Shown here: positions 37,360-58,292 of the stretch, piece after piece | Numbering within the stretch: position 1 is the stretch's first letter | How the letters are laid out: every line of letters begins with the position of its first letter | Source: Planctomycetota bacterium | GTDB taxonomy: Bacteria > Planctomycetota > MHYJ01 > WSZJ01 | Assembly: GCA_038060895.1 (NCBI GenBank) | Contig: JBBTCT010000007.1 | Span: 132,023 to 196,022 of the forward strand | DNA: 64,000 nucleotides | Reading direction: 5' to 3' | The notes under the pieces: generated by a model | What the model was told of the DNA's origin: nothing | Databases searched by the model: none | The model's input: the letters and a program-made list of their open reading frames with translations, nothing else | Translations under genes and position numbers: made by a program

Positions 37360-37916
37360 TTGTCCTCCCTCTTGTCCTTCAACCCCTGGATCTCCTTGTC
37401 GTCCGGAAACGCTTCCTTGCACAGCTTCACCAGCGCCGCACGCGCGGCATCAAAGTCCTCGTGCGAGACCTTGCGCTCCTTCTCCCCGGGCGGAATCGTC
37501 GAGATTTCCAGCTCGTCGCAGTGGAAGCAGAGCACGACGTCTACCCAGTCCTTCTCACGCCAGAGGCGGAAGCCGACTCCCGGCTCGAACTTGCATTTCT
37601 TCGCCTTCTCCCAGTCGTACGTCTTCTCGTCGAACACGATGGCCGCGAGCTTCAGCCCGAATTCCCGGGTCTGCTCTTTCCCGGTCGAAATGATCGGGTA
37701 CCCGCCGCACTCCTTCCCCATCGGCTCCGTCGGCTTCTCCGGGAACACGCGGAACACTTCGACCTTCATCACTCCCGCGATGATCCCCACCGGCCGCTCG
37801 CCGCCCAGCCAGGCCTTCACTTTGTCCGAAGGGCCCTTCTTTTCTTCTTCCGCCCAGGTCGCCGCGGCAGCGCCGAACAGGAGCGCGGCCGCAACCGCCA
37901 GCTTCATCGTCTTCAC
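37356..37916 (-). CDS. Secreted protein with one copy of the same CxFxP...CFHCD domain
   Basis: Signal peptide; KKCKFEPGVGFR...VVLCFHCDE...AFPDDKEIQGLK. Confidence 0.75.
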   Translation of the reverse strand: MKTMKLAVAAALLFGAAAATWAEEEKKGPSDKVKAWLGGERPVGIIAGVMKVEVFRVFPEKPTEPMGKECGGYPIISTGKEQTREFGLKLAAIVFDEKTYDWEKAKKCKFEPGVGFRLWREKDWVDVVLCFHCDELEISTIPPGEKERKVSHEDFDAARAALVKLCKEAFPDDKEIQGLKDKREDK

Positions 37917-41907: not shown

Positions 41908-42066
41908 GGGGAAAAAGGGCAACAACGAAACGAAAAGCGAAAAACGAAAAGGTAAAAACGAAAATTGACCGGCCCGCAGAAGAAGAGCCTCGCTTCGGCG
42001 GGCCGTTTTCTTTTCGTTTTTCGTTTTTACTTTTTCGTTTTTCGTTTCGTTGCTGCCCTTTCCCCC
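41908..42066. repeat. Palindrome with A-rich heptamer arms (CGAAAAA / TTTTTCG) between convergent genes
   Basis: aacgaaacgaaaagcgaaaaacgaaaaggtaaaaacgaaaa ... ttttcgtttttcgtttttactttttcgtttttcgtttcgtt, with a GC hairpin core. Confidence 0.85.
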
Positions 42067-44238
42067 CTACTTCTTCGGCCCCAGCTTCGCAACCAGCCAC
42101 CCCCCCTTCTGCTTGTTCGTCATCTCCTTCAGTATGGCCACCGCCTTCTTGCTTCCCACCCTTCCGTTCGAAAGGTCGTACATCACCGCCCTCGCCTTGT
42201 GCGCTCGGTAAATCGACGCGAAGGAATCCAGCACCACCTCCGTCGGCCCGGCAAGCCGGCGCGCGAGCTGCTTGAGCCTTCCCTCGGGCGCTTCGGGCTT
42301 CTCGTCGTTCAGCCTCCGCTCCTGCTCCTCCTCCGCCGGGGCCTTCACTTTTGACAGCGTCTCGTTGATCACGCGCCGCGTGCCGAAGTCCAGGCTCGGG
42401 TTCTCCTCGAGGAACTGCTCGCAACGGCGTCGGACCAGGTCCTTCTCGTAGTCCTCGAAGACCCCGCACTCCTTGAGGTACTGCGTCCCCTTGTCCTGCT
42501 GCCCGGTGTCCCGCGAGCACACCCGGTCCACCGCACGCTCGATGTCGCCGGCGCGCACCCAGCGCTCCGCAAAGTCGAGCCCCGTTCCCTTGATGTTCTG
42601 CACGCCCAGGATGTGCACGCGCGTGTTCGGGGGACACAGCGAGGCAACGTGCCGGATCAGGTCCGCACCCTTGATGTAGTAGTTCTGCACGGTGTGGATC
42701 GAGGACAGGAACCACCCCCGGTACCACACCCGGTGCGCTTCGAGCCAGGCATGAAGACCGCCCGACTGGATCGCGGCCTGAAGCGCCGCCTTGTGCATCG
42801 AGAGGGACACGAACCCGTTTGACGCCTCCGTGATGAAGCGCACTTCCTCGTCGGACGGGGTGATTCCCGGGGCGGCCTGCGAGAGCGCGGCCCGGGTGAG
42901 CGCATCGGCGTCGAGCGGGCAGGCCTCGAGCGCCGGGAGCATCTGTTCTTCGGGCACGGAGAGGACGTCTCCGCAGCGCCACGCGAGTTCCTCCGTGGTG
43001 CGCGAGAGGAAACGGAGGTTGGCGAGATCTCGGGCGAGGACGTTCTCGAGGTAGGTCGCGTGCTCGGCCCGGTCGGCCGGGAGCTCGAGCCGGGCGAGGC
43101 GGGCGCTGAGCGCTTCCTCGATGTAGCCGTTCAGGCCGTTGAGGTTGGAGCCGATGAGGACGAATTTATGGCCGGCGAGGTCGTCGACGACGATGGAAGC
43201 GAAGACTTTCGAGCGGGGGACGCGATCGGCGCGGTTGTTGACGACCATGACGGTCCAGTCGCGGCGGTCGCCGTTGGGGTTGTCGAGCTTGAGGCGGCGC
43301 CAGTTGTTCATGGTGCCGGCGCGTTCGTTGGCGGAGCAGCCGTTGGAGAAGCGCAGGCGGCGGCCGCCGGCGATGTGGACTTCTGGGTAGGTCTTGAGGA
43401 CGCCGAGGTCGGGGACGACGTGGTCGGCGATTTCCTTGATGAGGAAGCCGTCGTCGATGCCCATTTCGTGGCCGAGCTGGAACGCGAGCATGAGGTTCTT
43501 GGGGTGGACGTTGTAGGGGAAGCGCTCGAGGACGTCGGGGGTGAGGAGGTCGGCGAGCTCGGTCGCGGGTTCGATGAGGCGCGAGCCGCGCTTCCGCGCG
43601 AACTCGCGGAGGACCGGCTGGAAATTTCCCTCGGTGTGGATGACGGTGGCGCCGATGCCGATGAAGTTGGAAATGGCTTCGGAGACTTCGAACCCGGACG
43701 GTCCCTGGATGTCTTCGTGGTCGGGGTAGGTGTTGGTGATCGTTGAGATGTCGTCGGTCATCCACGACTGCTGCAGGATGCGCACGTAGTCGGCCTGAAG
43801 CGCCATGCATTCCCAGAGCATGACGTCGGCTTCCATGTTGGCGGCGACCTGGAGGACGGCGGTCTGCTCCCAGATCGTGGCCTTGTCGTGAGGGCGGAAG
43901 AGGTAGAACTCGCGCGACTCCTCGTAGTCGTGGGCGGTCACGAACATGGCTTCGCATCCGGTCGATTTGGAAAGCAACCGGTAGCCGAGTGCGTTGAACA
44001 GTGCGGCCTTCTTGCGTTCGGTCCCGGACTTTCCTCGCGTCCCCCAGCCGCCGACGACGAGGGGGATTTTCATCCGGGCGCGCCGCGCGCGGAACTGCCG
44101 CCAGGAAAAGAAGAAAGCGATCCACGCCACGACGAGGAGGACGAGGAAGGCGAGCTGCAGGAGGTTGTTGCCGGCGGGGCTGAACCAGAGTTCGCTCCAG
44201 TCGCGCCAGGATTCGAGGAAGCGGTCGAGGAGGTTCAT
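42067..44238 (-). CDS. pgsB: Poly-gamma-glutamate synthase PgsB/CapB-like Mur-ligase-family protein with a helical insertion
   Basis: N-terminal TM; GWGTRGKSGT, SKSTG, ATIWEQ, WECMALQADY, ITNTYPDHEDIQGP, FSNGCSANE, NNRADRVPRS and GVQNIKG in PgsB order. Confidence 0.8.
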   Translation of the reverse strand: MNLLDRFLESWRDWSELWFSPAGNNLLQLAFLVLLVVAWIAFFFSWRQFRARRARMKIPLVVGGWGTRGKSGTERKKAALFNALGYRLLSKSTGCEAMFVTAHDYEESREFYLFRPHDKATIWEQTAVLQVAANMEADVMLWECMALQADYVRILQQSWMTDDISTITNTYPDHEDIQGPSGFEVSEAISNFIGIGATVIHTEGNFQPVLREFARKRGSRLIEPATELADLLTPDVLERFPYNVHPKNLMLAFQLGHEMGIDDGFLIKEIADHVVPDLGVLKTYPEVHIAGGRRLRFSNGCSANERAGTMNNWRRLKLDNPNGDRRDWTVMVVNNRADRVPRSKVFASIVVDDLAGHKFVLIGSNLNGLNGYIEEALSARLARLELPADRAEHATYLENVLARDLANLRFLSRTTEELAWRCGDVLSVPEEQMLPALEACPLDADALTRAALSQAAPGITPSDEEVRFITEASNGFVSLSMHKAALQAAIQSGGLHAWLEAHRVWYRGWFLSSIHTVQNYYIKGADLIRHVASLCPPNTRVHILGVQNIKGTGLDFAERWVRAGDIERAVDRVCSRDTGQQDKGTQYLKECGVFEDYEKDLVRRRCEQFLEENPSLDFGTRRVINETLSKVKAPAEEEQERRLNDEKPEAPEGRLKQLARRLAGPTEVVLDSFASIYRAHKARAVMYDLSNGRVGSKKAVAILKEMTNKQKGGWLVAKLGPKK

Positions 44239-46907
44239 GTGAGGAACTCGCCTCCCTCCGAACCCGGCGGCGGGGGTGGCGGTATGACAAAGTCGTCGCC
44301 TTTCCCCTCTCCCTTTCCCTTTCCCTCTTCGTCTTCTTCCCCCGCCGGCGGCAGAATCGGCAGCTCCCCCGTCAATTCATCCAGCGGATCCCGCACCGGC
44401 GGCGTCGCCGCAGGCACGTCGTCCCACGAGTCGAGCGCCGAAGCGACTTCGTCCACCGCACTTTTGCGCTCCAGCGGAGGAAGCACCAGCGGCTCTTCGG
44501 CAAGTTCCGCCGGGATTTCCGCAGTGGGGGCCGGAAGAGCCATCAGGTCATCCAGAGGATCGCGCGCGGGTGCTTCAGGAGGCGGCGCCGACAGTTCATC
44601 CAGCGGATCGCTGGGCGGAGCCTCCTGCGCCAGTCCCTCCGCCGTGAATTCCTGCGCCACGGGTCCCTCGGACTCGGCGCGATACGCCGGCGGCGCTTCG
44701 TCCCCCTCCGGCGGCGGCGGCGAAAACCCTTCGATCCCCGCCCCTTCCCCGCCCGCCGCGAACGGGTCGGGCTCCGGCGGGACCACCGGGAAATCAGGGA
44801 CCGGCCCTTCCGCCACTGGCGCGGCCTCCGAGATAGGGGCCGCGTATGTGAAATACGGCGCGGCCAGCGACAGCTCCAGCGGAGGGTTCGGGCGGAATTC
44901 GACCTTGAAGCCCATCGCGCGCAGCTTCTCGATGTACGCATTCGGCGGCGCTTCCGGATTTCCATAGCGGGCCTGTTCCCGGAGAGCCGCGAGCGCAGCG
45001 TAGCTCTTCGCCATCCGCCATCGCAGCTTCCATCGCGACTTGCGTCCCGCCGGCGGCTCAATGGTGACGATTCCCTCGCTCGAATAGACCTGGCAGGGGC
45101 CGAACTCCAGGGAATCGAGGAAGTCGTCGGGCAGGGGGAGGAAGCGCCGCCACCCGCCCTCGGCGCCCATCTGGATCGGCTCGCCTGGAACTTTCGTCGG
45201 CGATTCTTCCGCAAGTCCCCACGCGTGGGCGCGGATCGTCCCCTCGTAGCGCCGCCCGCGGACGTGCGAAATCGCCTGCCGTTTGTCGGGCGCGGGATTC
45301 AGCGTCTCGTGAATCCAGCGCCACAGCCGCCAGCGCTTCTGGTGCCCCACCGTCACGCGCCAGCCCTTCCCGCGCCGAAGGGCATACAACCCGTAGTGTT
45401 TTCGCGAAAGCCAGGCGAGGAAGCGCCCGAGGACTTCGTCGGTAACCGCGGGATCGTCGCCGGCGAGGTCGACCTGGTCTTCGCGGTTGCTTTCGTTCAG
45501 CAGGGGGACGACCTGGTCGCGGAACGCGGCGAATCCTGGAAGAGCGGCGACGCGGACGCGCTCGAGGAGGTCCTCGAGCTGGCCGCGAACGGGGAGCGAC
45601 CACCCCTTGGCGACGGCCTTCTCGAGCAGTTCGAGCGCGAACTGTTCGGCGACTTTCGAGTCGAGCTGGCCGAACCCGACGAGCTGCTCGAGGACGATGC
45701 CGGCGTGCTTCATGGCGACGGCCAGCGGCAGACCCTCCGTTTCCCGCTCGAAGAACAGGCGCCATTCCTGAAGCGCAATGTCGGCGCCGCGAGGAAGCAT
45801 GGCCCACCGGGCGAGCACGAGGTTGACGGCGGCGCGGACCTCGGGGACCGGATCCCATTCCTCGCGCATCAGGACATGTTCGCGGAGGACGGGCCACGCG
45901 TTTTCCGGGTCGCGGTTGCCGAGCGCAAGGATGGCACCCTGCCGGACGTGCGGGCTCGGGTCCGGTCCCATCATGGCGGACTGGATGAGCTCCATCGAGC
46001 CGGCTTCGTCGAGAACTTCGTGGGCCTTTTCGACGAGGAAGCGGCGGACGAAGATGTCGTCCTTGATCTTCGGGTCGGGCGAGCGGAGGCGCTGGCGTGC
46101 GAGTCGAATGGCGTCCTGCGGGCTCGCGAGCAGCCAGGCGTAAAGCGCGCCGCACTGCACCCAGACGTCCGCCCACGGATTCTGCGCCCGGACCGCGAGC
46201 GCATGCAGGATCGCGGGGTCGATCACGACTCCCTTCTTCGGATTCTTGTGAGCCTTCAGGATCGCCACGACCGCGTCGATCCACTCGCGCTCGAGATGAA
46301 TAGGAAGCCGCTGCGCGATCTCGCGCTGGAAAATGTCCGTGAATCCCGTCCGCTCCATGACGTCGGCCGCCGTCCGGCCCCGGTCCGGGCCGCACCGCGC
46401 CAGCGCGCGCGCCGACAGGAAGACGAGCGTCTGCTGGAAGCGCCTCGCCCCGCGCTGCGCCCTCCGCGCGATCTCCAGGATCGCTTCCCAGTCCATGAAA
46501 CGCTTGAACGCCGCCTGGTCGCCCCGGATCTGCGCGGGGGTGCGCCGAAGAAAGCGACAGGTGTCGAGATAGATCGCTTCCCGATCGATGTGGGACGACG
46601 CGAAGCGGAGCGCGGCTTCCTGGATGCCGAGATGAGACTCGATCTCCTGCACCCGGTTTTCTGCGAGGTCGATGCATTTGACGGATCCCGCCACCAGCGC
46701 GAGATACGGGTCGCGCTTCTGGAACGCTTCGAGCCTCGGAACGATATTGCGCACGGCTTTTGTCGCGCGGGCCAGGTGTTTCGTCATGAGCTTGCGCATG
46801 ATCGGCGGCACGGGGCGCAGGACTTCCTCGAGGACGGCGTCGAGCGCCGGGCCGCTGATGGTCCGGGTATCGGGCCCTTTCGGGACGACCTTGGTTACGG
46901 TCGCCAT
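44235..46907 (-). CDS. Large HEAT/ARM-repeat-like protein with an acidic Pro/Glu-rich tail
   Basis: DPSPHVRQGAILAL, DPVPEVRAAVNLVL, DDIFVRR; overlaps both neighbours; about 890 aa from MATVTK. Confidence 0.65.
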   Translation of the reverse strand: MATVTKVVPKGPDTRTISGPALDAVLEEVLRPVPPIMRKLMTKHLARATKAVRNIVPRLEAFQKRDPYLALVAGSVKCIDLAENRVQEIESHLGIQEAALRFASSHIDREAIYLDTCRFLRRTPAQIRGDQAAFKRFMDWEAILEIARRAQRGARRFQQTLVFLSARALARCGPDRGRTAADVMERTGFTDIFQREIAQRLPIHLEREWIDAVVAILKAHKNPKKGVVIDPAILHALAVRAQNPWADVWVQCGALYAWLLASPQDAIRLARQRLRSPDPKIKDDIFVRRFLVEKAHEVLDEAGSMELIQSAMMGPDPSPHVRQGAILALGNRDPENAWPVLREHVLMREEWDPVPEVRAAVNLVLARWAMLPRGADIALQEWRLFFERETEGLPLAVAMKHAGIVLEQLVGFGQLDSKVAEQFALELLEKAVAKGWSLPVRGQLEDLLERVRVAALPGFAAFRDQVVPLLNESNREDQVDLAGDDPAVTDEVLGRFLAWLSRKHYGLYALRRGKGWRVTVGHQKRWRLWRWIHETLNPAPDKRQAISHVRGRRYEGTIRAHAWGLAEESPTKVPGEPIQMGAEGGWRRFLPLPDDFLDSLEFGPCQVYSSEGIVTIEPPAGRKSRWKLRWRMAKSYAALAALREQARYGNPEAPPNAYIEKLRAMGFKVEFRPNPPLELSLAAPYFTYAAPISEAAPVAEGPVPDFPVVPPEPDPFAAGGEGAGIEGFSPPPPEGDEAPPAYRAESEGPVAQEFTAEGLAQEAPPSDPLDELSAPPPEAPARDPLDDLMALPAPTAEIPAELAEEPLVLPPLERKSAVDEVASALDSWDDVPAATPPVRDPLDELTGELPILPPAGEEDEEGKGKGEGKGDDFVIPPPPPPGSEGGEFLT

Positions 46908-49900
46908 GGGGACCGCGCCTGCTGGTAGTCGCCGAAGCGGACCGACTCGGGATCGACGTGGTCGAGGCGGTCTCCGGAGCGGCCGCCGAAGCGGAAGATC
47001 AGGGTGAAGTGGGCCTCGCGCCCGTGGGTATCGGGAGACCAGCGGAATCCGGCTTGCGCGGACATCCATGTGCCGGGGCCGAGCCAGCGTTCGTAAGCGG
47101 TGGTGATTCCGATGCCCCTCTCGGAAGCGCGACGCGAGCGGAAGGCGTCGTCGATGCGGATGACGCGATCGAGCTCGAGCTCGACGAAAAAGTTCTCGTA
47201 ATGCGCGCCGGCCGTCACGCCGTAGGTGTAGCGGTCGGGCTCCCACGGCTTGAGAGTCGGCTCGGACCTTGTCGCAGCCTGCATGTCCACGTACACATTT
47301 TGCCACGGGATGGCGCGCAGACGGCCCTCGAACTGGAGCCAGCGATCGTGGTCCGTGCGGTAGCTCGTGTAGACCAGCGGGTGCTCGGGACGGCGGACGA
47401 TGCCGCTGTCCTTGAGCGAGGACCACCAGTAGTTGAAGTGGCCCGCGGCGAAGAAGATCCACTGTTCGTGAAGCTGAAGCCGCCATCGCAGGCGGATGTC
47501 GGATTCCCAGGAGTAGCCGTAGTAGCCGCCGAGATTTTGCCCCGCATAGTCGAGGTCGATCCGGTAATCGAGGTCGGGGACGTCGAGAAAGTAATGGTGA
47601 AAGCGGATCTGCGCGCCGTGAACAGGTGAGAACCCGCTCTCCTTGAGAGCGTACGCCGTCAGCCGCGTGTAGATCGGCGTCTCGAACGCCTTCCAGTGAA
47701 CGCGTACCCCGCTGCGGATCTCGTTGCGCTCGGAGTCCTCGTTGTACGCCAGGCTTCCCGCATTCCGCAGGAATCCCTCCACGTAGGTCTCCACCATCCC
47801 CGGATACTCCACCAGCCGCCACGACTCCCGCCTCCCGGGCGCCGGGGCAGGAAGCACGTCCGGCGCGGGGGGCGCTTCCGCCTCCCCGGCGATTTCTCCC
47901 TGAGGCGGCTGAAGCGGGACCATCCGGGCGAGCGCCGCACCGTCCACCGACCGGACCGAGAGCCGCACGAATGCTTCGCGCTCGAGTTCAAAGTCCGCGA
48001 ACGCCGCGCCGGCCCGGGGGACGCCCTGCAGAAGCGTCCGCTGGATCGTGGCGGGTTCGGCCGTCCATTGCCCCGGGTCGTCGGTCGCGGCGAGGTCCGT
48101 CGCATCCCAGGTTTCCATGCGCGCCAGCGTCGGCCCGCGCACTTCGAACGACCTCTTCCCCGCCGGCGCCCGATACAGCAGCCCGTTGCGTTCGGGCCGC
48201 ACCGGCTTCAGGCCGTCCGGCGTCTCGACGAGCAGCCGGGCGCGCGCGCGCACGCGGGCGAGCGGCCGGTCCGCGGCGACGCGGATCGAGACGAGCGATT
48301 CCTTCGTGGAGCCGGCCGGAAGCGTCAGCCTCTTCCCGGATTCGAGCGGCCCGGCGGAAACGACGGCGCCGTCCCGCTCGAGCTGGTAGGCGATGGCAGC
48401 GCCGGCGACGTCGCAGGCGGCGACGAGCTCGACGTGAAGCGACGCTTCGGCATCGGACCGGTGATGCCACTCGACGAAGTCCTCGTTGTCGAAGAGGACG
48501 GTGGCGGTTTCCCCGGGGAAGGGGAAAAAGAGGGCGTTGGAGACGGCGATGGCGGGGTCGTCGGGGAGGTCCTGGGAGATGCGGACTCGGCGGAATTCCG
48601 GGAGGTCGGCGGACAGGTCCACGCCGGTCCAGCGGGTGAGGATGCGCGCGAGGTCGTGGTTCGACTGCCAGTGAGGATTGCCGAGGCCGTCGGCGTGGGA
48701 CTTGAGGTAGAGGTCGAGCGCGCGTACGACCCACTCGGGTTCGGAACCGGGAACGCGGGTCAGGACGGCAAAGAGCAGGTCGTCGCCGAGGGCGGTGAGG
48801 GCCTCGGTGTATTCGGCGCGGCCGAAGCGCGGCGACGCGCCCGCCTTGCGGGCGGCGTCGAGCCGGCGCTTGAGATCGGCGACGAGGGGCGACTTCGGAT
48901 CCGGCGCGAACGCCGGAAAGTCGAGCGGCGGAGGGAATGGAACGCCGGCGGGGCGGGCGCCGGCGCGAGCATCCCAGGCCATCCAGACGGGGCCGGCCAG
49001 GCGGCGGACGGAGAGAAATCCGGCGCCGCTGACCAGCCGGATCTTCACGCGCGACTGCCCGGCCGGCGCGATCACGCGCCACGCGTCCACCTTGCCGGGC
49101 GCGGCCCACGGAAGGCGTTCGCACGTGACATTCGCCGCGGGCAGGCTCGCCAGCACGTCGTGCGTCGGAATCCCGGGAAGCCCCTCGACCACGATCCGCG
49201 CCGGCGGCGCGTCGCGGCGCGCGATCCCGCCCTCCACCGCGTGCGCCGAACGCCAGTTGAACTCGTACACCTCGGGGCCGGGAAGCGCGAGCGACAGTTC
49301 GGCCCCCTCGGTCATCCACGTCGCCTCCCACGCGCCGTACCGGCCGGAAATGCGCACGACAGGCGGCGTCGCCAGCACTTCGTCACTGCGCAGGTCCCGC
49401 GCGCGCTCGAGCGGCGCCAGCACGCCGCGCGGCGGCGGCCAGTCCGCCGTGCCGGCATACGGAATCACGAGCCGTGCTTCCAGCGCCCAATCGGCGAAGC
49501 GCGCCCCGCGGCCGAACAGGTAGCGGGAGGCGGAAAGAATGGCTTCGCTCTCGCAGCGCTCTGCAATCCTGGCGAGCGCGGGGCCGACTTCGGTGGCGGG
49601 ATCGAGCCTGCGAAGCCGCAGGAGATCGGTCATGACGGCCATGAGCGGGTCCGCGGGCTCGCCCGCCGGCGCCGGCTCGTCGATCGCCACCGCGACGAGC
49701 CGCTCGAGATCGGTCGAGGCGTCCTCCGGCTCGAGCCGCGCCTGCCGGAACCACGCGCGCGCGGCCGCGAGGTCGTCCGTACCCAGCGACGCGACCGAAG
49801 CGAGAAGGAAGAGTTCCCGCGACCGGCCGCCGGCGCGGATGATGGTCTCGACGCGCGCGCGCAGCTCCAGATCGTCGCCCGCGCGGAACGCGACGACCGC

Positions 49901-52795
49901 GAGCGCGAGCGAAACGCGGTCGCGGTCGAGCGAGTTTTCCGGGAAGAGCGCTTCGGCTTCCTCGAGGTCGAGCACCGACTGCGACCGGCCGAGCCGGAAC
50001 ATGAGGCGGGCGCGGGCTTCCAGCGCGGCGGCCCGCGCTCCCGCGTCCGGCGCTTCCGCAATCGCGATCGTGGCCACCGCGGTCTCCTGGGCTTCCTTGA
50101 CGTCCCCCGTGACCCCTTCAGGAGGATCCCACAATCCCGAAGGCGGCGCGCGCCGGTCCGAGCCTTCGGCGCGCCGGATCAGCAGCTCCGCGGGCGTCGA
50201 GCCGATGGCGAGTTCCGAGACCGTCGCATACGCCTCCCATGCGCGGTGCGCCTCGATCCGCACGAGCGCTGGCCCCGACGAAACGAGCACGATTCCGGTC
50301 ACCGCCGGCCCCGGCGAGTACGACTCAACCGGCGGCCCCGCCGCCGAATCCCGATCGCCCGTCTCGCCTTCCGCCTTCGAAATCCAGAGCAGCCGCCGCC
50401 CGGGAAGCTCCTCGGGCCCGACGTACACCGTAAACGGCGCATCCACGTCCGCGGTCGCGCGGTCGCCGCGCGAAGCGACGCCGAAGCGGTACCGGATGAT
50501 CCCGGCGCGCTGAAAGTTTTCGCCGCGAAAGGTCACGGCCGGCGTGCTTCCGGGGGGGGCCATGAGCGGAAACAGGTCACTCACGACGCCCCATCGCTCG
50601 GTCACGTCACCAGTCCGTTTGACCGCATCGGGCACGTCCTCGAAGCGCGCGTCCATCCGGCGTTCCCGCGAGGCCGCGCCGAACACGACGTTGTTGCCGC
50701 GCCACAGAAACACGCGCCAGGGATGTTCCACGGGCCGCGCAGCCAGCGCTTCGCCGGGGATCGCGTCGGCGAGCGCGAGCAGACCGAGGTTGTGGGCGTC
50801 GCGGAAACGGATTCTGCCGAAGCCTCGCGCGGGATCGGCGGCCCGTCCGACCTCCAGAGTGACGGGCGACAGCCAGTCTGCGGCGGGCAGGATCTGGAGA
50901 AACCCTTCGCCGGTCGCGACCGCCTGGAAGTCCTCGGCGCGCGCCACGTACCAGGGCCCGGATCCCGACGCCGACCGCGCGTTGAGCCAGGCCGACAAGG
51001 CGTCGCCTCGAAGCGCTCTCTCTCCGTACTGTGCGACGAGCGGCAGGATCCACCGCCGCCCGCCGACGGTCGCGCCGATCGTGCCGAGCTCGGCCCATGT
51101 GCCGAAGACCTCCCGGATCGACCGCGCTTCGACGTCGCGCAGAAACCTCCGCAGCACGCGCGGCTCCGCGGACGTCGGCCACGCGCGCATCCGCTCCAGC
51201 GGCCGCCGCCCGATGCACCACGCCGCGAGCGCATCGACGAAATCCTCCGGCTCTGCCGGCGGGTCGTCGAAGATCCACTGCGCCACGATCGCCGCCATGC
51301 CGTCTCGCCGCGTGTCGAGCGCGTACCTGAGAAGCGTGAGCCGCGCTTCGGCAACGAGGTCGCCGTGCAGCTCCGTCAGCAGGCGCACGAGACGCGGCGC
51401 CGCATCGTCGGCCGCGGAAGCGTCGCCGGTGAGGAGCGCAATGTGCAACTGCCGCCACAGAAACCACCCGTGCCATTCTTCGACCTCTTCGCACCCGCGC
51501 AACGCGGAGAGCGCTTCACTCCACTCCCCCCGCAGTTCGTGCGCGACGGCGGCCGCAGCCGCGGCGCGAGCACCGGTCCCCGCATCTGATTGGGGAAGCG
51601 ATTTGAACGGCGACCGGTGCTCCGCCTGGTCGATCGACTTCAGCTCCTGGATCATCGTGTACACCGGCCGAAGCGACCGCATGCGCACTTTCCACGTCCC
51701 GGGCGGCACGTTCACGCGCAGCTCGCGCGGCGACGAGACGAGCCAGCGCTCCGGCGGCTTCCCGCTCGCCAGAAAGTCCTCCCCGTCCCAGATGCGCGAC
51801 GTCTGCTCGACGTCCGCCCCAGGCCAGCCGCGCAGCCGCCACGTCGCTTCCCCGACCGACACCGTGACATCCAGGCTCCCGAGATCCTCCGCCGCCTTGA
51901 CGGCGACCGTGGACCGCGCGATCACGCGCAGCACGCACGGACCGTCCACCTCGCCATCTCGCAATTCCCCGCGCAGCCAGGGGCGGCCGAGCGAATCCTT
52001 GAAGCGAGGCTGCTCTCCCTCGTCCCACTCCGAAGTCAGCGCATGCCCAGAGATCGGCGCTCGCGACTGAAGATCAGAAGCGCACCAGCCGACGCTTCGC
52101 AGTTGCCGTTCCCGTGAGGAATCCTCCGCCGGCTCCCAGGGCAGCAGCATCCGCTGCGCGCGCAGAAAGCGTCCGACGTCGCGGCCGGGAAGCGTCGCGG
52201 GGTCCACCGGCGCGGGCCACGTGTCCCCCGCCTCGTCGGCCTGCCGGACCGCCCGCTCGAGACGTTCCCACGACTCGTCCTGCGTCACGCGCTCGTACCC
52301 GTCCAGCGAGAACCGGTAGATCGCGACGCTTTTCGCGACGCACCGCACCCCGATCCAGTCCGCATCCTGCCCCGGCGCCAGCTCGGCGCGCGCTTCGCCC
52401 GCGCGTTCGCGCCACGGCAGCCGTTCCGCGAGCAGCGAAGCGCGCGGAGGCGGCATGCCGACATGATCCGGCCGCGGCCCCACGTCGAGCGACCCGCGCG
52501 TGACGGCATACATCTCAAGCGCCGATCCCGGTGGCTGCTGGTTTTCCGCAGGCACGACCCGGAAACTCTCGAACAGCCGCGCTTCCGCAAACCACCACTC
52601 CCCCGGCGTCAGCTCGACGATCCCGTCGTCGGCGTCTCTTCCGCGAAGTGGTTCCGTCCGTGCGTCCGGCGCCGGGCGCCACACCCACCCATCCACCAGC
52701 CGCTGCCAGCGCTCCGAATGCCCATCCGGCGCCGGAGGCGGATCGGCGGCGGCCAACGCGGCAAGCGCCGCAAGCGCCGTGACGGTCTTCCACAT
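46895..52795 (-). CDS. Giant secreted protein (1966 aa) with TPR-like helices and a probable C-terminal outer-membrane beta-barrel
   Basis: Signal peptide MWKTVTALAALAALAAA-D; last ~300 aa are amphipathic aromatic-rich strands (IRSGVRVHWK, YRIDLDYAG, YSWESDIRLRWR, YTYGVTAGAHY, AHFTLIFRFG). Confidence 0.7.
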   Translation of the reverse strand: MWKTVTALAALAALAAADPPPAPDGHSERWQRLVDGWVWRPAPDARTEPLRGRDADDGIVELTPGEWWFAEARLFESFRVVPAENQQPPGSALEMYAVTRGSLDVGPRPDHVGMPPPRASLLAERLPWRERAGEARAELAPGQDADWIGVRCVAKSVAIYRFSLDGYERVTQDESWERLERAVRQADEAGDTWPAPVDPATLPGRDVGRFLRAQRMLLPWEPAEDSSRERQLRSVGWCASDLQSRAPISGHALTSEWDEGEQPRFKDSLGRPWLRGELRDGEVDGPCVLRVIARSTVAVKAAEDLGSLDVTVSVGEATWRLRGWPGADVEQTSRIWDGEDFLASGKPPERWLVSSPRELRVNVPPGTWKVRMRSLRPVYTMIQELKSIDQAEHRSPFKSLPQSDAGTGARAAAAAAVAHELRGEWSEALSALRGCEEVEEWHGWFLWRQLHIALLTGDASAADDAAPRLVRLLTELHGDLVAEARLTLLRYALDTRRDGMAAIVAQWIFDDPPAEPEDFVDALAAWCIGRRPLERMRAWPTSAEPRVLRRFLRDVEARSIREVFGTWAELGTIGATVGGRRWILPLVAQYGERALRGDALSAWLNARSASGSGPWYVARAEDFQAVATGEGFLQILPAADWLSPVTLEVGRAADPARGFGRIRFRDAHNLGLLALADAIPGEALAARPVEHPWRVFLWRGNNVVFGAASRERRMDARFEDVPDAVKRTGDVTERWGVVSDLFPLMAPPGSTPAVTFRGENFQRAGIIRYRFGVASRGDRATADVDAPFTVYVGPEELPGRRLLWISKAEGETGDRDSAAGPPVESYSPGPAVTGIVLVSSGPALVRIEAHRAWEAYATVSELAIGSTPAELLIRRAEGSDRRAPPSGLWDPPEGVTGDVKEAQETAVATIAIAEAPDAGARAAALEARARLMFRLGRSQSVLDLEEAEALFPENSLDRDRVSLALAVVAFRAGDDLELRARVETIIRAGGRSRELFLLASVASLGTDDLAAARAWFRQARLEPEDASTDLERLVAVAIDEPAPAGEPADPLMAVMTDLLRLRRLDPATEVGPALARIAERCESEAILSASRYLFGRGARFADWALEARLVIPYAGTADWPPPRGVLAPLERARDLRSDEVLATPPVVRISGRYGAWEATWMTEGAELSLALPGPEVYEFNWRSAHAVEGGIARRDAPPARIVVEGLPGIPTHDVLASLPAANVTCERLPWAAPGKVDAWRVIAPAGQSRVKIRLVSGAGFLSVRRLAGPVWMAWDARAGARPAGVPFPPPLDFPAFAPDPKSPLVADLKRRLDAARKAGASPRFGRAEYTEALTALGDDLLFAVLTRVPGSEPEWVVRALDLYLKSHADGLGNPHWQSNHDLARILTRWTGVDLSADLPEFRRVRISQDLPDDPAIAVSNALFFPFPGETATVLFDNEDFVEWHHRSDAEASLHVELVAACDVAGAAIAYQLERDGAVVSAGPLESGKRLTLPAGSTKESLVSIRVAADRPLARVRARARLLVETPDGLKPVRPERNGLLYRAPAGKRSFEVRGPTLARMETWDATDLAATDDPGQWTAEPATIQRTLLQGVPRAGAAFADFELEREAFVRLSVRSVDGAALARMVPLQPPQGEIAGEAEAPPAPDVLPAPAPGRRESWRLVEYPGMVETYVEGFLRNAGSLAYNEDSERNEIRSGVRVHWKAFETPIYTRLTAYALKESGFSPVHGAQIRFHHYFLDVPDLDYRIDLDYAGQNLGGYYGYSWESDIRLRWRLQLHEQWIFFAAGHFNYWWSSLKDSGIVRRPEHPLVYTSYRTDHDRWLQFEGRLRAIPWQNVYVDMQAATRSEPTLKPWEPDRYTYGVTAGAHYENFFVELELDRVIRIDDAFRSRRASERGIGITTAYERWLGPGTWMSAQAGFRWSPDTHGREAHFTLIFRFGGRSGDRLDHVDPESVRFGDYQQARSPWRP

Positions 52796-52998
52796 TCCGC
52801 GTGAGACAGGACCGCGCTTTCGCGGAGCCCCCGCGCGGTTTTCTACTCCGGTTGCGATGACGAGATTCTAGCAGCAGGTTCATCAAGCGGGAGGCGCGTA
52901 TCCGCGAGCAACGACTCTCTTGAGGCGGGGCACGTCCTGGGCCCTGACCAAGCACTCTCCCCCCGCTTTTTCCAGACCGCGGCTGGGTGAAGAATTTG

Positions 52999-53442
52999 TC
53001 ATTTGGGTAGACGTTCGTATTGTCCCCTTCGTGACTGCGGTAGATCGCTATAGTGAAGGTCTCTTCCGAAACCCTTTCCTCCTAGCTGCCCATCCGATCC
53101 AGTAGAGAACAAGTCGAATGTTTCCGAACGCTCGTCAAGCCGATAGGAATAGGCCCGGTTCCAGCCATCGACTGGAATATTCAAAATGTAGCCCCCTTCC
53201 AGCCAGTTGGATGCGTCAGCAGGCGCTGTGTTGAGTTCATTGAGTTCGCGCGGAAACCGACCGCAATCAGCTTTGAATTCTAGTATTGCGTCGCCAAGTA
53301 CTGCCAGGCGAAGAAGCGTGGATTCGGCTCGAACTGCCTCCCTAGTGCTTCGATTCCAAGAGACCAGAAGGAAACCCGAGAGAGAGAGCAAGAGAGCCGT
53401 ACCCGCCGCCAGCAGCAGCATTGAAATGCGTTGAAGCTTCAC
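52999..53442 (-). CDS. GspG-like (T2SS pseudopilin domain) protein without a clear prepilin site; start uncertain
   Basis: TM, then FKADCGRFP..LNEL, W..GYI..IPVDGWNRAYSY, FDLFSTGSDGQLGG; no GFTLIE; visibly lower GC. Confidence 0.7.
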   Translation of the reverse strand: MKLQRISMLLLAAGTALLLSLSGFLLVSWNRSTREAVRAESTLLRLAVLGDAILEFKADCGRFPRELNELNTAPADASNWLEGGYILNIPVDGWNRAYSYRLDERSETFDLFSTGSDGQLGGKGFGRDLHYSDLPQSRRGQYERLPK

Positions 53443-53720
53443 GCGGATCCTTTCAATTGCCTTGCGCTTGGAAAATCTGCACTCGCGCTTCAACGCCCGC
53501 TCATTCCTGGCGCTTCAAAGGGTCTCGAATGAAGCAGGACCCAACTTGACCGAAATCACGTGTTCGCCTTGGACAAGTTCAACTCTGACGGAAAAGATTA
53601 GAAGGCTTCGCCGCGCGCCGACGGCGCTTTGTTCACGACCATCGTCGTTTTGTCTTCGTCAAGGCCTCGAAGTTCATTTTACCCGCGGAACGTCGTGCTT
53701 GCCCAACTCTTCACCAGTGA

Positions 53721-54599
53721 TCAAGCTCTGCAACCGCAGCAGATGTCAAAGGTTATGGTGTATTTCGACCATGCCGGAGGTCGCCCCGGAGACCCGATTC
53801 CAGGAGCGGTGACTTTTGGAGCAAGGCCTCCCACCGTTTCGGCGGGCACCGCGGGAGCAATCTCGCGAGCGTCTACCAAACTGACTCGAGTCGGCACGCA
53901 ATTCCCTCGCTGGCACGGCGGCAAAGCTGAGCAAATCCCCTTCGCTCTTTCCTTGGCCCAAGCCTCCAGCAGGGCCATGACGACTGGAATGACCTTTGAC
54001 TGCTCGGCCGCGTCCAGCGGTGTCGTTCCGAATTCGATTCCTATTTCAATGACGGGTTCAGGCAAGGTCGCCGGGAGCGGCCAAGGCCAGCCGGTGGGTT
54101 TGTTGATGTGCGCAATTTTGCGCGTCAATTTAGCAGTCTCGCAATGCGACATCGATGGGAAAAACGCGTTCGTTGTCCTTCTCATTCGAGCGCAGACATT
54201 GCAGTTCGTTCCCAAGGGCCACGAAACAATGACGCCCGGAATGCCAGGGAACCCAGGAGGATTTGTCGTGGGTGACAGGTCGGATGGATCGATCCAGTCC
54301 AAGGGCAGAGCCGGACCGATTGGAGGCGCTTCTGGTGGCGGCGGCCATGGACCGGACGGAGGATTCCACAGCCTTCCTCCTGACGGCGGCGGGTCTCTCC
54401 AATCCGGCGGAACCGGCCCGAACGGATCTTCCGGAAATGGCTTGATGGCATCGTCGGGAAGCAAGACCTCGGCCGCAATTTCCGTCCGCGCGATCGCTGA
54501 TTGTGAGCCCAGTTGATCAAGTGTGACTGGGCGCGCGAGCATTGCCCTAGCGATGAGCGACTGCTCTACATCCTGGAAAAGACTACTTTGCGAAGACAT
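53721..54599 (-). CDS. Hypothetical Pro-rich, Cys-rich protein
   Basis: AGGAG RBS; Pro/Trp-rich linker; CNVC, C-x5-C-x4-C and terminal CCGC. Confidence 0.6.
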   Translation of the reverse strand: MSSQSSLFQDVEQSLIARAMLARPVTLDQLGSQSAIARTEIAAEVLLPDDAIKPFPEDPFGPVPPDWRDPPPSGGRLWNPPSGPWPPPPEAPPIGPALPLDWIDPSDLSPTTNPPGFPGIPGVIVSWPLGTNCNVCARMRRTTNAFFPSMSHCETAKLTRKIAHINKPTGWPWPLPATLPEPVIEIGIEFGTTPLDAAEQSKVIPVVMALLEAWAKERAKGICSALPPCQRGNCVPTRVSLVDAREIAPAVPAETVGGLAPKVTAPGIGSPGRPPAWSKYTITFDICCGCRA

Positions 54600-54640
54600 T
54601 TTAAGCTCCTGTGTTTCGATTCAGGGACTGCCACGAAAGG

Positions 54641-55324
54641 CTATTTGCAAGAACGCATCCTCACGCACCAGTCGAGCACCGTGTTCCACAAGCTGGCGAA
54701 CCTGGCCGCCTGAACTTCAGGCGACCGAAGGCCCTCTTCGATCGGGACGTTTCCGTCAACCTGCGGTCCTCCTACTCCTGTGGCTGCGACAAAGTCGGAA
54801 GTGGCCTTGTAGTGGTCGAGCCTGTTCGCCACGCGCCATTCTCGGTTCAGGTAGAGGAAGGCCTCGCTCGGCAGGAACCTCCGATGCGTCGGATCCTGAA
54901 ACGCCCAGTTCGACCTCAGCGCCGGGACAATGACGGTCACGAGCCCGCCCGGCTTGAGGATGCGCCAGCACTCGTCGAAGAACGCGAAGAAGAGGTCGCG
55001 GTCGCCGGTGGAGGCGGGGACGTCGCGGTAGTCCCCCTCGGGCGAGACGTAGACCATCGGGATGTGCTCGACGAAGTGCGAGCAGTGCAGTTCGTCAATG
55101 GAGCTGTCGGCCCAAGGCCAGGGGAACTTCATCAAGTTCACCCTGTGCTTCGCGTCCGCAAACATGTCCACGCCCTCGAAGCCCTCGCGGCAGGATTGAC
55201 CGCAGGCGAGATCGAGTTTGAGTTCGCGGGCGGGAGAGAGGACGACTTCCGGCGAGGAGGAGTCCGGTCCTTGGGCGGCCGATGGGTGCGTTTCATGGAG
55301 TGAGACGAGGGCATTTTCGCTCAT
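54641..55324 (-). CDS. SAM-dependent methyltransferase-like protein (Methyltransf_11-like type common in phages)
   Basis: AAGGAG RBS; LKLDLACG, PWPWADSSIDELHCSHFVEHIP, ECWRILKPGG, AFQDPTH. Confidence 0.8.
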   Translation of the reverse strand: MSENALVSLHETHPSAAQGPDSSSPEVVLSPARELKLDLACGQSCREGFEGVDMFADAKHRVNLMKFPWPWADSSIDELHCSHFVEHIPMVYVSPEGDYRDVPASTGDRDLFFAFFDECWRILKPGGLVTVIVPALRSNWAFQDPTHRRFLPSEAFLYLNREWRVANRLDHYKATSDFVAATGVGGPQVDGNVPIEEGLRSPEVQAARFASLWNTVLDWCVRMRSCK

Positions 55325-55338
55325 GGCAAGGCGCTCCT

Positions 55339-55755
55339 TTATCCGCAGAAGAAACGGGCAACGAGGGAGAAGATGGCCGGGTTGCCGCCCGACTCGACGG
55401 CCACGAAACGGACCTGGGCGAAGCTGTTCCCCGTGATGGCGGCGGAAGCGCTGTACCCGACCGCGGTGATCTGCAGCGCCGACCCTGCGTTTGACCAGTT
55501 GAGGCCGTTGTTGCTGACCTGGGCCTGGACGGCGGTCTGGAGCGAAGCGCCGAAGATCACGATGGCGACGAAGTCGAAGGCGTTCGCACCGTGGGTCGGA
55601 ATGGGAGGCGAAACCACGGTCCCGCTTGCCGCCAGGGCGAGCGGGTCCCAGACGGGTTCCGTGAACTGCGCGCCGCTGCCGCAGGGGGTCGCGGCGGAGG
55701 CGGATTCCGCCGCTGGGGCGGGCGAGCCTTCGCAAGAGCAACCGTTTCCGCTCAT
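55339..55755 (-). CDS. Small beta-rich virion-like protein, paralog D (Cys-rich N-terminus)
   Basis: SPPI..GANAF, QVSNNGLNWS, VGYS, FAQVRF; ATGA-coupled. Confidence 0.75.
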   Translation of the reverse strand: MSGNGCSCEGSPAPAAESASAATPCGSGAQFTEPVWDPLALAASGTVVSPPIPTHGANAFDFVAIVIFGASLQTAVQAQVSNNGLNWSNAGSALQITAVGYSASAAITGNSFAQVRFVAVESGGNPAIFSLVARFFCG

Positions 55756-56102
55756 GACTTGCCTTCCTTTCTCTCGCTTGAGGAATTGCCGGCGGGGTCC
55801 GCGGCTTCGATCAGGAGCAGTTCGGCGATGACGAGGCGCGCCTTCTCCAGCCAGAGGCGGGCGCGCAGCAAGGGATACCGCGTCGCGACTTCGCCGGACG
55901 AGCAGTATCCGGGACAGGTGCCTTGCCACGACGCGATCTCGGACCAGTCCGAGCCATCGCCGGAGCCTTGGAGAGCCACATGGAGCGTCCCGCGGGCGAG
56001 GTTCAGGATGATCATCTCCACGCGTACGGGGCCATCGCCCTTGCGGCGGATCGGCCTGGAGAAGCAGTCTCCGTCCTTGAACGCGAATCTGTGCCGCTGC
56101 AT
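55752..56102 (-). CDS. Small beta-rich virion-like protein, paralog C
   Basis: FSRPI..GDGPVRVE..LNL, LQGSGDGSDWS, PGYC, YPLLR; TGATG-coupled. Confidence 0.7.
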   Translation of the reverse strand: MQRHRFAFKDGDCFSRPIRRKGDGPVRVEMIILNLARGTLHVALQGSGDGSDWSEIASWQGTCPGYCSSGEVATRYPLLRARLWLEKARLVIAELLLIEAADPAGNSSSERKEGKS

Positions 56103-56233
56103 CAGTACACGATTCCTGTTCCCGGGTCGATGTGCCCGACCTTCACGCGGAAATCGACGGCGAGGCGCTTTCCCGGCTCGCGGGCCTCCTCGCAAAAGTA
56201 GCGGTCGATACCTGCGGGGTGACGCATCGTCAT
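56102..56233 (-). CDS. 43-aa hypothetical protein
   Basis: Coupled on both sides (ATGA at 56230-56233, TGATG at 56100-56104). Confidence 0.5.
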   Translation of the reverse strand: MTMRHPAGIDRYFCEEAREPGKRLAVDFRVKVGHIDPGTGIVY

Positions 56234-56532
56234 ACGCTCAGCCTCAGAAATTCGCGCTCTTCGGCGACGGTGCTCTTGCCTGCGCGGATCTTTGCGCGCA
56301 GCTCTTCGGTGCGCGAAATCTCGAGCGCCGCTGCGGGCTCCGGCGCCGAGAGCTTGCGGCCGTCCTTCGACATCCGGCACCCGAAGCCGCCGTCTTTCCT
56401 GGCGACGACGGCGAAGCAGTCCGGGTGGCGCTTCTCCACGGCCGCGAGGCAGTCTTCGGGGGACAACGCGTCCGAGTAGGCGGCTACGCACAGGCCGTCG
56501 GAAAGCCGGCAGATGAGCTTGGTTGTGATCAT
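56230..56532 (-). CDS. 100-aa protein following the fibre-like gene (possible fibre-assembly chaperone)
   Basis: MITTKLICRLSDG...; ATGA-coupled; beta N-terminus and helical C-terminus; position typical of Tfa-like genes (inference). Confidence 0.55.
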   Translation of the reverse strand: MITTKLICRLSDGLCVAAYSDALSPEDCLAAVEKRHPDCFAVVARKDGGFGCRMSKDGRKLSAPEPAAALEISRTEELRAKIRAGKSTVAEEREFLRLSV

Positions 56533-57194
56533 GCGATCTTGCCCGGGGTTCCCCCGGATCCTTTCCGGATCGTGAGGGCGGATCCGCTGGAGGACGACTG
56601 GGCGAACTGGAGCTGCATGTTTCCCGCGTTGCTCGAGTTGAGGACCCAGAGCAGGACGTGCACCAGGCCGGGGTCGTCTCCCCCGAAGTTCGTGTCCCAG
56701 TCGAGCGCGCCGCCGCTGGACGTCGTGCGCCGGACGTTCGAGGACAGGCCGACCGAGCGGGACTCTGCGATCGCCAGGAGGTTCATCGTCGCGCCGCTGG
56801 GGACCGTGACCGCGATCTTGATTCCCGTACTCTTGAGCGCCGCCCCGATGTCGAGGTCGAACATCCAGAGCCACTCCTCGTTGGCCGCGATCGACTTCAC
56901 CATGTCCGTCACGTTGGTCAGCGTCGTGCTCGAAGTGATGCTCTGGTCCGCCGTCATCCGCACGGGGACCGGCGCGGACCCTGCCGTCCCGCCGACGATG
57001 CTGCTCCCGCTCCGCTTCAGGAATTCGCCATCCGCGACCGCCCCCATCGCCAGCGTCGTCGGACCGCCCGTCTCCCGAAGACGCTTCACGATCGCTTCGA
57101 GGATGTCCGTCGAGAGAAAGGCGTCCGAGCCGCCGGAGACGTGGGTGCTCTCGTGGGGGAGGACGCCCTGAGATTGGTCTCGAAGCGTCGGCAT
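56529..57194 (-). CDS. Phage tail-fibre / minor-tail-like protein (221 aa)
   Basis: HESTHVSGGSD, GAVADGEFLKRSGSSIVG, TADQSITSSTTLTNV, AGNMQLQFAQ...LTIRKGS; GGAGGAAGG RBS; TAATG-coupled. Confidence 0.65.
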   Translation of the reverse strand: MPTLRDQSQGVLPHESTHVSGGSDAFLSTDILEAIVKRLRETGGPTTLAMGAVADGEFLKRSGSSIVGGTAGSAPVPVRMTADQSITSSTTLTNVTDMVKSIAANEEWLWMFDLDIGAALKSTGIKIAVTVPSGATMNLLAIAESRSVGLSSNVRRTTSSGGALDWDTNFGGDDPGLVHVLLWVLNSSNAGNMQLQFAQSSSSGSALTIRKGSGGTPGKIA

Positions 57195-57763
57195 TAGCCT
57201 TCCTCCAGGACGTCGAGGCCGCCGATGGTCCACGTCGGCGCGGTGGTCGCGGCCCAGGTGTAGATGAGAATCGAGCCGGTCTGTCCGATGGCGACGCCAT
57301 CGTGAAGGTCGGGATTCAGGACGAGGCCGGAGTAGACGGGCTGCTTCCACTGATAGAGGTAACGGACGGTCGAAGGCGAGCTCGCGACCAGGTTGTACCG
57401 GAAACTGAATCCTGCGGCGTAGTCGCTGTCGGCCATGGTCGCCTGCGGCGTGATCTCCGTGCCGCCCGAGGAGTAGCGGTTCGCGGGGTCGATCGCGAGG
57501 AGGATGTTGATGACGCCGCCCGCGGGCGTCCCGTCCTGGCAGAGCGTGAAGTTCGAGAGGATCACGCGGCGGCCGTTGGAGTTCGCCTGATTGATGAGGA
57601 AGGTGGGAGTCGTCGCGACGAATGACGTCTGACCCGTGATCGTCGTCCCCGGCGTCTGGTGCGAGATCGCGAAGCGCCGGCCGCCGAGGCACGAGGAATA
57701 CGCATTCGCGCGGTCCTGGTAGCGGACGGGGTCGAACAGGTAAGTCAGCGGAATGTCGGCCAT
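57194..57763 (-). CDS. Beta-rich T/S/G-rich virion-like protein (189 aa)
   Basis: GAGG RBS; all-beta composition; no signal peptide. Confidence 0.65.
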   Translation of the reverse strand: MADIPLTYLFDPVRYQDRANAYSSCLGGRRFAISHQTPGTTITGQTSFVATTPTFLINQANSNGRRVILSNFTLCQDGTPAGGVINILLAIDPANRYSSGGTEITPQATMADSDYAAGFSFRYNLVASSPSTVRYLYQWKQPVYSGLVLNPDLHDGVAIGQTGSILIYTWAATTAPTWTIGGLDVLEEG

Positions 57764-57901
57764 GGATGCCTCGATGAATTTTGAGAATCGACGGCGCTCT
57801 CCGGGACGCCGCAAACAAAACATCGGCGATCGGGAGAGGGCCGCCCCTGCGGACCCTTCTCGTCTTGCCCGTCGTGGCCTCTCCCCGCATGCCTGGCTCC
57901 G

Positions 57902-57929: not shown

Positions 57930-57940
57930 ATTTGCGCGGT

Positions 57941-58273: not shown

Positions 58274-58292
58274 GATTTTCTCCGAATGAGTG

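Follow-up and report, generated by a model that had tools for sequence, protein, structure and literature searches.

A candidate polyglutamate synthesis and export operon of diderm bacteria, built around a long form of PgsB

How a poly-amino acid made by a PgsB-type amide ligase could leave a cell enclosed by two membranes is the question raised by a locus of a Planctomycetota bacterium (assembly GCA_038060895.1, contig JBBTCT010000007.1, positions 132,023–196,022; these 64,000 nt are referred to as the window). Three overlapping minus-strand genes in the window encode a giant protein of 1966 amino acids (46895–52795), a HEAT-like protein of 890 amino acids read from an ATG at 46907 (44235–46907), and a long-form PgsB/CapB-type ligase of 723 amino acids (42067–44238). 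The initial annotation had recognized this arrangement, which is confirmed: the HEAT and giant genes share 13 nt at the HEAT start, the HEAT stop and the ligase start are joined in ATGA (4 nt), and the guanine–cytosine content of the third codon positions (0.82–0.90) resembles that of the window's housekeeping genes. A 1297-amino-acid open reading frame (ORF) on the plus strand (47696–51589) was rejected as an antisense shadow. The closest homologues of the trio are found in metagenome-assembled genomes (MAGs) of Planctomycetota, with 68–86% identity. The accounts of poly-γ-glutamate (PGA) synthesis that were examined are built on Bacillus-type operons and mention no step at the outer membrane (PMC5542703, PMC3815933, PMC13721041), and the PGA model of CapsuleFinder, as presented there, has no outer-membrane component (PMC5542703). 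Judged from related loci, a long pgsC belongs to the same five-gene operon, of which the trio makes up the 3′ half. By analogy with synthase-dependent exopolysaccharide secretion, this operon probably encodes a polyglutamate synthase together with its own trans-envelope export machine.

A long form of PgsB and its HEAT-like partner

The ligase matched a single family model, TIGR04012 (PgsB; 192.3 bits, E = 1e-56). The same model was matched by all 60 long ligases examined and no other was matched significantly; FolC appeared in one of the 60 (E = 0.016), and no Mur or CphA (cyanophycin) model appeared among the 25 of 28 families examined for them. Conversely, a hidden Markov model (HMM) built from 70 long ligases recovered five bacterial PgsBs at E values of 1e-37 to 1e-47 and a haloarchaeal PgsB at 3e-11, and gave FolC and Mur E values of at least 0.096. 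In a quick tree of 22 long ligases (that of the window and 21 from 69 locus sequences) and 12 references, the long ligases formed a clade (support 99) that was sister to the five bacterial PgsBs (support 88), with long-branch warnings and with the haloarchaeal PgsB outside. Mur and FolC identities were rejected on the basis of the TIGR04012 match, the HMM comparison with the references and the tree; the proposed grouping with PgsB rather than with MurC-F, FolC or CphA is thus borne out, the tree having contained no CphA row and no CphA model being listed for the 60 homologues. A sequence search of the PDB with the ligase returned nothing significant.

As had been claimed, the PgsB motifs are recognizable in the ligase, and alignment to five annotated or neighbor-supported PgsBs placed them all in order: an N-terminal transmembrane (TM) segment, the GxRGKS P-loop, K(T/S)TG, ECMA, DH, N-R-DR and the terminal G-x-N-I-x-G. 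Hydropathy and alignment indicate one TM helix (residues ~19–46) followed by basic residues, and a PgsB core at residues ~32–375. The insert of about 150 amino acids noted in the initial annotation is present (residues ~375–505, ~130–150 amino acids, before the last conserved motif), and a C-terminal extension of ~160 amino acids without counterpart in canonical PgsB had been missed. Because they score below the model's cut-off, carry the insert and the extension, and form a clade of their own, the long ligases are best described, from sequence comparison, as a distinct PgsB subfamily and not as formal members of the equivalog.

A scan of GTDB genomes with the ligase alone found at least 806 stretches with a relative, and the best 80 of these yielded 75 loci (numbered from L001). 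The HEAT-like protein comprises a HEAT-like solenoid, a strongly conserved domain that belongs to no known family (residues ~490–670; 44898–45440, minus strand) and a Pro/Glu-rich tail, and hydropathy revealed neither a signal peptide nor a TM segment. A HEAT_2 match (E = 4.7e-5), which lies under the Pfam cut-off, agrees with its description as HEAT-like, and an HMM made from the N-terminal half of each of 53 distant HEAT-PgsB fusions matched it with E = 5e-99. The conserved domain of this protein forms one polypeptide with the ligase in 64 of the 75 loci and is separate in 11 (in one, L057, the separation resembles a frameshift), and the splits in L009, in L011/L033 and in the planctomycete group all fall at one junction. 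From these homologies, the 890-amino-acid protein is the split-off N-terminal half of a ~1400-amino-acid HEAT-PgsB fusion. Its most conserved part is the ~490–670 domain and not the repeats: this domain was found in 75/75 loci, has 22 invariant columns in 42 sequences, is rich in basic residues (invariant motifs WR..E, DKRQ..H..GR and E..TKVPGE), and gave no sequence match in the PDB. In the fusions, a single strong TM segment lies between this domain and the ligase, with one short hydrophobic and one amphipathic stretch ahead of it; with only one strong TM segment before the ligase, a cytoplasmic HEAT half would require a hairpin-type anchor. In L045, a HEAT-PgsB ORF of 2151 amino acids (3288–9743, plus strand), with an N-terminus ~700 amino acids longer, is convergent with the giant, hydrolase and anchored-protein genes (9774–19703, minus strand).

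A five-gene operon across diderm phyla

The 75 loci, which are the closest matches, belong to the Planctomycetota, alpha-, beta- and gamma-proteobacteria, Myxococcota, Verrucomicrobiota, Spirochaetota, Nitrospirae and Desulfobacterota; no monoderm phylum is named in their titles, within this set of closest matches only. All-against-all clustering revealed a recurring gene order: long CapC, membrane-anchored protein, hydrolase, giant and HEAT-PgsB. The barrel-bearing giant gene is present in 52 of the 59 loci with at least 3.5 kb of upstream sequence (57/75 of all loci), the anchored-protein gene in 42 of the 48 loci with at least 9 kb upstream, and the hydrolase gene, by gene clusters, in 38 of the same 48. 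The per-gene HMMs used for the barrel and anchored-protein counts came from the same loci, so that they map genes and are no independent test of homology. The predicted co-occurrence of the three genes is thereby borne out in several phyla of diderms, HEAT and PgsB being fused in most cases, and by sequence comparison the operon defines at least three protein families for which there is no Pfam or NCBIfam model.

The long CapC of the relatives is ~1080 amino acids in length, contains PF14102 twice (E = 1e-41) and has at least eight TM segments. It is complete in L059 and L068 and represented by its C-terminal part in L011 and L033; that capC was seen in few loci is mostly because the 10-kb flank ends too early, usually inside the anchored-protein gene. 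CapC flags in L026, L037, L044, L052 and L070 were discarded as cross-hits to the hydrolase. The family comprises 1534 clusters, with lengths of ~1080 amino acids among the matches listed, and Azoarcus sp. CIB is named for both HEAT-PgsB and long CapC. The soluble part of long CapC contains two copies of a hydrolase domain, the second detected in 60/60 and the first in 54/60 of the sequences tested, and the His ligand is absent from these copies among the motif matches listed. A search of the plasmid collection turned up no long CapC, and the PgsB matches there are all short forms. Cultured environmental carriers of the operon include Methylovulum miyakonense HT12, Belnapia moabensis DSM 16746, Halovibrio sp. 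HP20-59 and Marinobacterium weihaiense A346. In 6/75 loci (L039, L046, L049, L051, L059 and L068) the operon is flanked by the gene of a CHASE2/HATPase histidine kinase, often together with a small response regulator; the kinase is a possible regulator of the operon.

The operon resembles the PgsBCAE/CapBCADE systems of Bacillus in its PgsB-type ligase with an N-terminal TM segment and the same motif order, in the CapC domains of the family, and in the linkage of a hydrolase gene to the synthase, as reported for pgdS of B. subtilis in the part of the source available (PMC4497714). It differs from them in the insert, extension and HEAT fusion of its ligase; in its doubled CapC fused to two pseudo-hydrolase domains; in a hydrolase with the zinc fold of PghP and N-formylglutamate amidohydrolase (FGase); in the addition of a periplasmic protein and an outer-membrane barrel; and in the absence of PgsA/CapA, PgsE and CapD from its conserved neighbors. 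The absence of a CapD-like gene applies to the scanned conserved neighbors, whole genomes not having been searched. The polymer may be a capsule held on the cell surface, as the initial annotation suggested, or a released product, with neither favored. PGA genes of the short capBC/pgsBC type are known in diderms (PMC5542703, PMC4497714), with examples in Fusobacterium nucleatum, in Planctomycetes in CapsuleFinder and on a Chroococcidiopsis plasmid; short diderm PgsBs are of ordinary length (361 amino acids in Rhodopirellula, 416 in another), whereas the ligase of the operon is enlarged. The long PgsB of Methylovulum miyakonense appears as an "unpaired" BLAST row in the accessible portion of a 2015 supplement (PMC4497714). 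On the Chroococcidiopsis plasmid (L077:4935–10117), a short pgsB is accompanied by genes for a two-domain PgsC of 333 amino acids, a hypothetical protein and an HlyD adaptor, an arrangement that hints at a second diderm export route.

In the window, the operon is divided. The ORF at 61679–64000 (minus strand), which runs off the window end and encodes the C-terminal 773 amino acids of its product, was matched by the HMM of the upstream family (E = 5e-12); full-length relatives, P0250 (1397 amino acids, 61% identity) and P0251, have an N-terminal hydrophobic anchor and match the family at 8e-26 and 3.5e-17. By this homology, the ORF is the gene of the operon's membrane-anchored periplasmic protein (~1400 amino acids in relatives). 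It is separated from the giant by an 8.8-kb block of unrelated genes (52871–61678). The stop of the anchored-protein gene and the start of the giant overlap in L004 (GTGA), and the genes are neighbors in L007; unrelated genes precede the giant in L001 and L002. Judged from this gene order, the block is an insertion or rearrangement. A −10-like hexamer, TAGAAT, lies ~70 nt upstream of the giant's ATG (52865–52870, minus strand), and TAGAAT/TAAAAT followed by CATCGCA is kept at this place in L001–L003 (compared by eye, without statistics); the hexamer is a possible separate promoter of the trio in this lineage. In agreement with the initial annotation, no pgsC, pgsA or capD was found in the window: a Pfam search of 76 ORFs found no capC, capA or capD, and the long-CapC HMM found no capC in six frames. 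From the gene order of the operon, capC is expected beyond the window end. A CapsuleFinder PGA system requires CapB and CapC, and the window has the CapB type alone, the operon running off its end.

It is conceivable that the family is interpreted correctly and that the copy in the window is a decaying or repurposed remnant, with capC and the hydrolase possibly absent from the lineage. The 8.8-kb interruption, the unrelated genes before the giant in L001 and L002, the lack of capC and hydrolase matches in the window and in L001–L007, and the ~15% barrel identity between giants of this lineage and the main family all favor such a remnant. We consider it very unlikely, given that none of the three ORFs is broken or shortened, either in the window or in relatives reaching down to 58–72% identity, that the invariant motifs of the ligase and of the HEAT-linked domain are largely kept, that the candidate promoter motif is conserved upstream, and that the anchored-protein gene is retained. 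In this planctomycete lineage, HEAT and PgsB are encoded separately and the operon lies in two blocks.

The interrupting block carries genes for a gspG-like protein (52999–53421), a methyltransferase-like protein (54641–55324), a sigma-54 activator (59329–61014) and, judged by eye, a possible nucleotidyltransferase remnant (61146–61655), together with four small similar-looking proteins (55339–55755, 55752–56102, 57941–58273 and 58293–58751), of which three have a repeat, D1, in common and two have weak PHROG hits. A prophage or integrative element at 52.9–61.7 kb was rejected, as no integrase, no convincing att repeat, no adjacent tRNA and only weak PHROG hits were found. At the other end of the trio, a low-GC stretch (41908–42060) between the convergent dapF and ligase genes contains tandem AAAACGA-type units flanking a GC-rich inverted repeat; in a terminator scan, the terminator-like site 3′ of the ligase was at chance level, and Rfam gave no match at 40–64 kb of the window. 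Elsewhere in the window, a Volactin-family actin homologue (22813–23910, plus strand; PF25216, E = 3e-74) is encoded in what resembles a planctomycete genome, and two adjoining genes for secreted-looking proteins (36379–37422 and 37356–37916, minus strand) contain copies of one ~150-amino-acid domain with the motif CxFxPxxxFR...VxVLxCFxCD and no Pfam match.

The predicted outer-membrane barrel and the secreted hydrolase

The giant consists of a signal-peptide-like N-terminus, a long multi-domain region and a C-terminal barrel; much of its length appears non-helical, with weakly TPR-like (tetratricopeptide repeat-like) helical stretches, for example at residues ~880–1140. AlphaFold2, run on the last 330 residues with 55 sequences, produced a barrel of 14 long strands (pLDDT 87.6; residues ~1666–1936, 46988–47800, minus strand) followed by a conserved tail of ~30 amino acids. 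The best Foldseek matches of this model were OmpG. In VIA comparisons, CymA (Z = 19.9, root-mean-square deviation [rmsd] 3.4, 258 residues aligned) and OmpG (18.6, 3.1, 234) were followed by PelB (16.0, 4.8, 241), PgaA (15.1, 4.2, 229) and BcsC (14.8, 4.4, 270), and Atlas matches included NfrA_C, SlipAM and BCSC_C at 0.91–0.92. When 38 distant giants, excluding those of the window and L001–L007, were used to build an HMM, it matched residues ~1702–1963 (E = 1e-16), and no other part of the giant is as well conserved across phyla as the barrel. The barrel-like C-terminus suspected earlier is therefore upheld by the AlphaFold2 model, Foldseek and VIA. The suspected TPR/β-barrel exporter stands in its barrel half, albeit with 14 strands and not the 16 of PelB; its TPR half received weak support, and Pfam gave no TPR match in the giant of the window.

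OmpA-type peptidoglycan-binding inserts occur in 2/26 homologues of the giant and LysM in 1/26, which suggests that the N-terminal region is periplasmic. A classical autotransporter has a 12-stranded barrel and a surface-exposed passenger. This identity was rejected for the giant, since 14 strands are modelled and the OmpA-type inserts indicate a periplasmic N-terminal region. In two methanotrophs (L015:5656–7866 and L030:5677–7881), the giant is split and the barrel half starts, by eye, with a lipoprotein-like signal. According to strand alternation, a rough method, K/R outnumber D/E at the predicted lumen-facing positions in 48/55 barrels (median +5), and the C-terminal region overall has a net negative charge. 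PelB, an exporter of a cationic polymer, has an anionic lumen according to the available part of the source (PMC12141448).

The same peptidoglycan-binding inserts, in 3/26 giants, would also fit an arrangement in which polyglutamate is kept in the periplasm or becomes attached within the envelope, to peptidoglycan or to the giant itself, while the barrel does no more than anchor a scaffold. This arrangement is further favored by the L068 operon, otherwise intact without the giant, by a barrel narrower than the 16 strands of PelB, and by the neutral lumen of the window copy. It appears unlikely to us: after two 14-strand porins, the next structural matches are three TPR-barrel polymer exporters, the lumen positions are basic in most barrels, and conservation across phyla is highest in the barrel.

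The hydrolase of the operon has ~295 amino acids, with signal-like N-termini in most members. Its model (pLDDT 91) matched 2odf (Z = 13.6), YndL (13.1), the N-formylglutamate amidohydrolase 2q7s (12.5), PM1 (11.9) and PghP (11.8), so that three PGA hydrolases (YndL, PM1 and PghP) are among its five best matches; according to the entry titles, the closest solved relatives of the fold act on acyl-glutamate amide bonds. Residues H131, D135, H193, E271 and R277 are invariant in 37 sequences and align, in a weak alignment over 158 columns, with the invariant H40, E45, H103, E165 and R171 of PghP, the first four of which we take to be the zinc ligands and the catalytic Glu. The enzyme therefore resembles PghP/YndL (PF05908) and N-formylglutamate amidohydrolase in its zinc-exopeptidase-type fold (Z = 11.8–13.6) and its aligned His/acid/His/Glu, and is unlike PghP/YndL in possessing a signal peptide and an N-terminal extension, in scoring under the Pfam cut-off, and in being encoded inside a synthase operon. 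The hydrolase HMM failed to pick PghP from 201 phiNIT1 frames, a single-sequence comparison was not significant, a PDB sequence search returned nothing significant, and no real phage match was found.

Glutamate is proposed as the substrate because PgsB, CapC and the hydrolase fold point to it independently, and the product would be poly-γ-glutamate or a very similar glutamyl polyamide. The same export architecture might instead serve a different polyamide, a polyglutamate that is modified or branched, or a polymer decorated with peptides. The long branch of the ligase clade (support 99), the sub-cut-off PgsB score with ~300 extra residues, the fused domain with 22 invariant residues and no known relative, and a hydrolase equally close to formylglutamate amidohydrolases and PGA hydrolases speak for a different product; set against the agreement of PgsB, CapC and an acyl-glutamate-type hydrolase fold on glutamate, it seems distinctly unlikely.

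A proposed trans-envelope machine

In the proposed polyglutamate machine, long PgsB, anchored in the membrane and with the HEAT partner or the fused HEAT half on the presumed cytoplasmic side, would add glutamate at the expense of ATP. The ~1080-amino-acid tandem-CapC protein, whose domains were seen in relatives, would form the inner-membrane passage, and its two periplasmic hydrolase-fold copies, which lack metal ligands, may bind the emerging chain. The membrane-anchored periplasmic protein and the N-terminal part of the giant would guide the chain through the periplasm. The secreted zinc hydrolase, known by its fold and ligand positions, may trim or clear the polymer. AlgL, BcsZ and PgaB are thought to do this in their systems. 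The confidently predicted 14-stranded barrel would be the exit for the presumed polyglutamate cargo.

Pga, Pel, Bcs and alginate systems combine an inner-membrane synthase, a periplasmic hydrolase and a large scaffold-barrel outer-membrane protein, as described in the available parts of two sources (PMC9384988, PMC12141448). The operon has a corresponding layout, with a candidate hydrolase and a putative periplasmic scaffold, and its barrel resembles those of BcsC, PgaA and PelB (Z = 14.8–16.0). Its polymerase, however, is an amide ligase and not a glycosyltransferase, and the operon is hence not a member of this group; in addition, its barrel has 14 strands, unlike that of PelB (16 in the accessible text of PMC12141448), its scaffold is mostly not recognizable as TPR, and the core genes that were scanned showed no cyclic di-GMP receptor domain. 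Taken with the PgsB grouping, the barrel model and the co-occurrence, this likeness supports the suggested synthase-dependent-like secretion of a poly-amino acid.

Several observations weigh against it. The ligase score of 192.3 bits is below the TIGR04012 equivalog cut-off of 222.7, as are those of four relatives (185.6–201.2), and the long ligases occupy a long branch in the quick tree. The barrel gene is not nearby in 7/59 testable loci; HEAT-PgsB without a nearby giant was seen in L032, L034, L039, L046, L058 and L068, several of them Thiotrichaceae-like MAGs, and L068 has capC, the anchored-protein gene, the hydrolase gene and HEAT-PgsB with no barrel gene within 10 kb. A capC is visible in only 4/75 loci, HMM searches found neither capC nor hydrolase in the window or in L001–L007, and L004 and L007 have no gene at the hydrolase position. 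The top structural matches of the barrel, CymA and OmpG, are uptake porins, and the predicted lumen of the window barrel is neutral (17 K/R versus 17 D/E). TPR support for the giant is weak, with sub-cut-off matches in 2/26 homologues and TPR-type Atlas matches of 0.88–0.89, at lead level. The hydrolase fold ties with the N-formylglutamate amidohydrolase-type 2odf and 2q7s (Z = 13.6 and 12.5), its sequence alignment with PghP falls short of significance (probability 1.8, E = 0.027), and PF05908 was detected in 2/37 members at E ≤ 1, the best value (0.0044) not being significant.

With these points included, we lean towards a dedicated trans-envelope route by which a poly-amino acid made without ribosomes is secreted, the polyamide equivalent of the machines for cellulose, poly-N-acetylglucosamine and Pel. 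It would be present in hundreds of diderm species. A HEAT-PgsB synthase, a new conserved domain, a tandem-CapC channel bearing pseudo-hydrolase domains for polymer binding, a periplasmic zinc γ-glutamyl hydrolase and a ~200-kDa scaffold-barrel would, with the same leaning, be its parts. No description of the operon was found in the literature searched, which did not extend to most subscription papers and beside which unread supplements could list it; the operon is widespread in two-membrane bacteria and apparently undescribed. For every step of the passage through the diderm envelope it provides a named candidate, and the question is directly testable because the operon occurs in cultured environmental strains. 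If the proposal is true, the principle of synthase-dependent secretion would extend from sugars to polyamides, PGA would be predicted in many biofilms, mats and symbionts, and polyglutamate would be an overlooked, common matrix polymer of Gram-negative bacteria, including diderms of marine, soil and sediment habitats.

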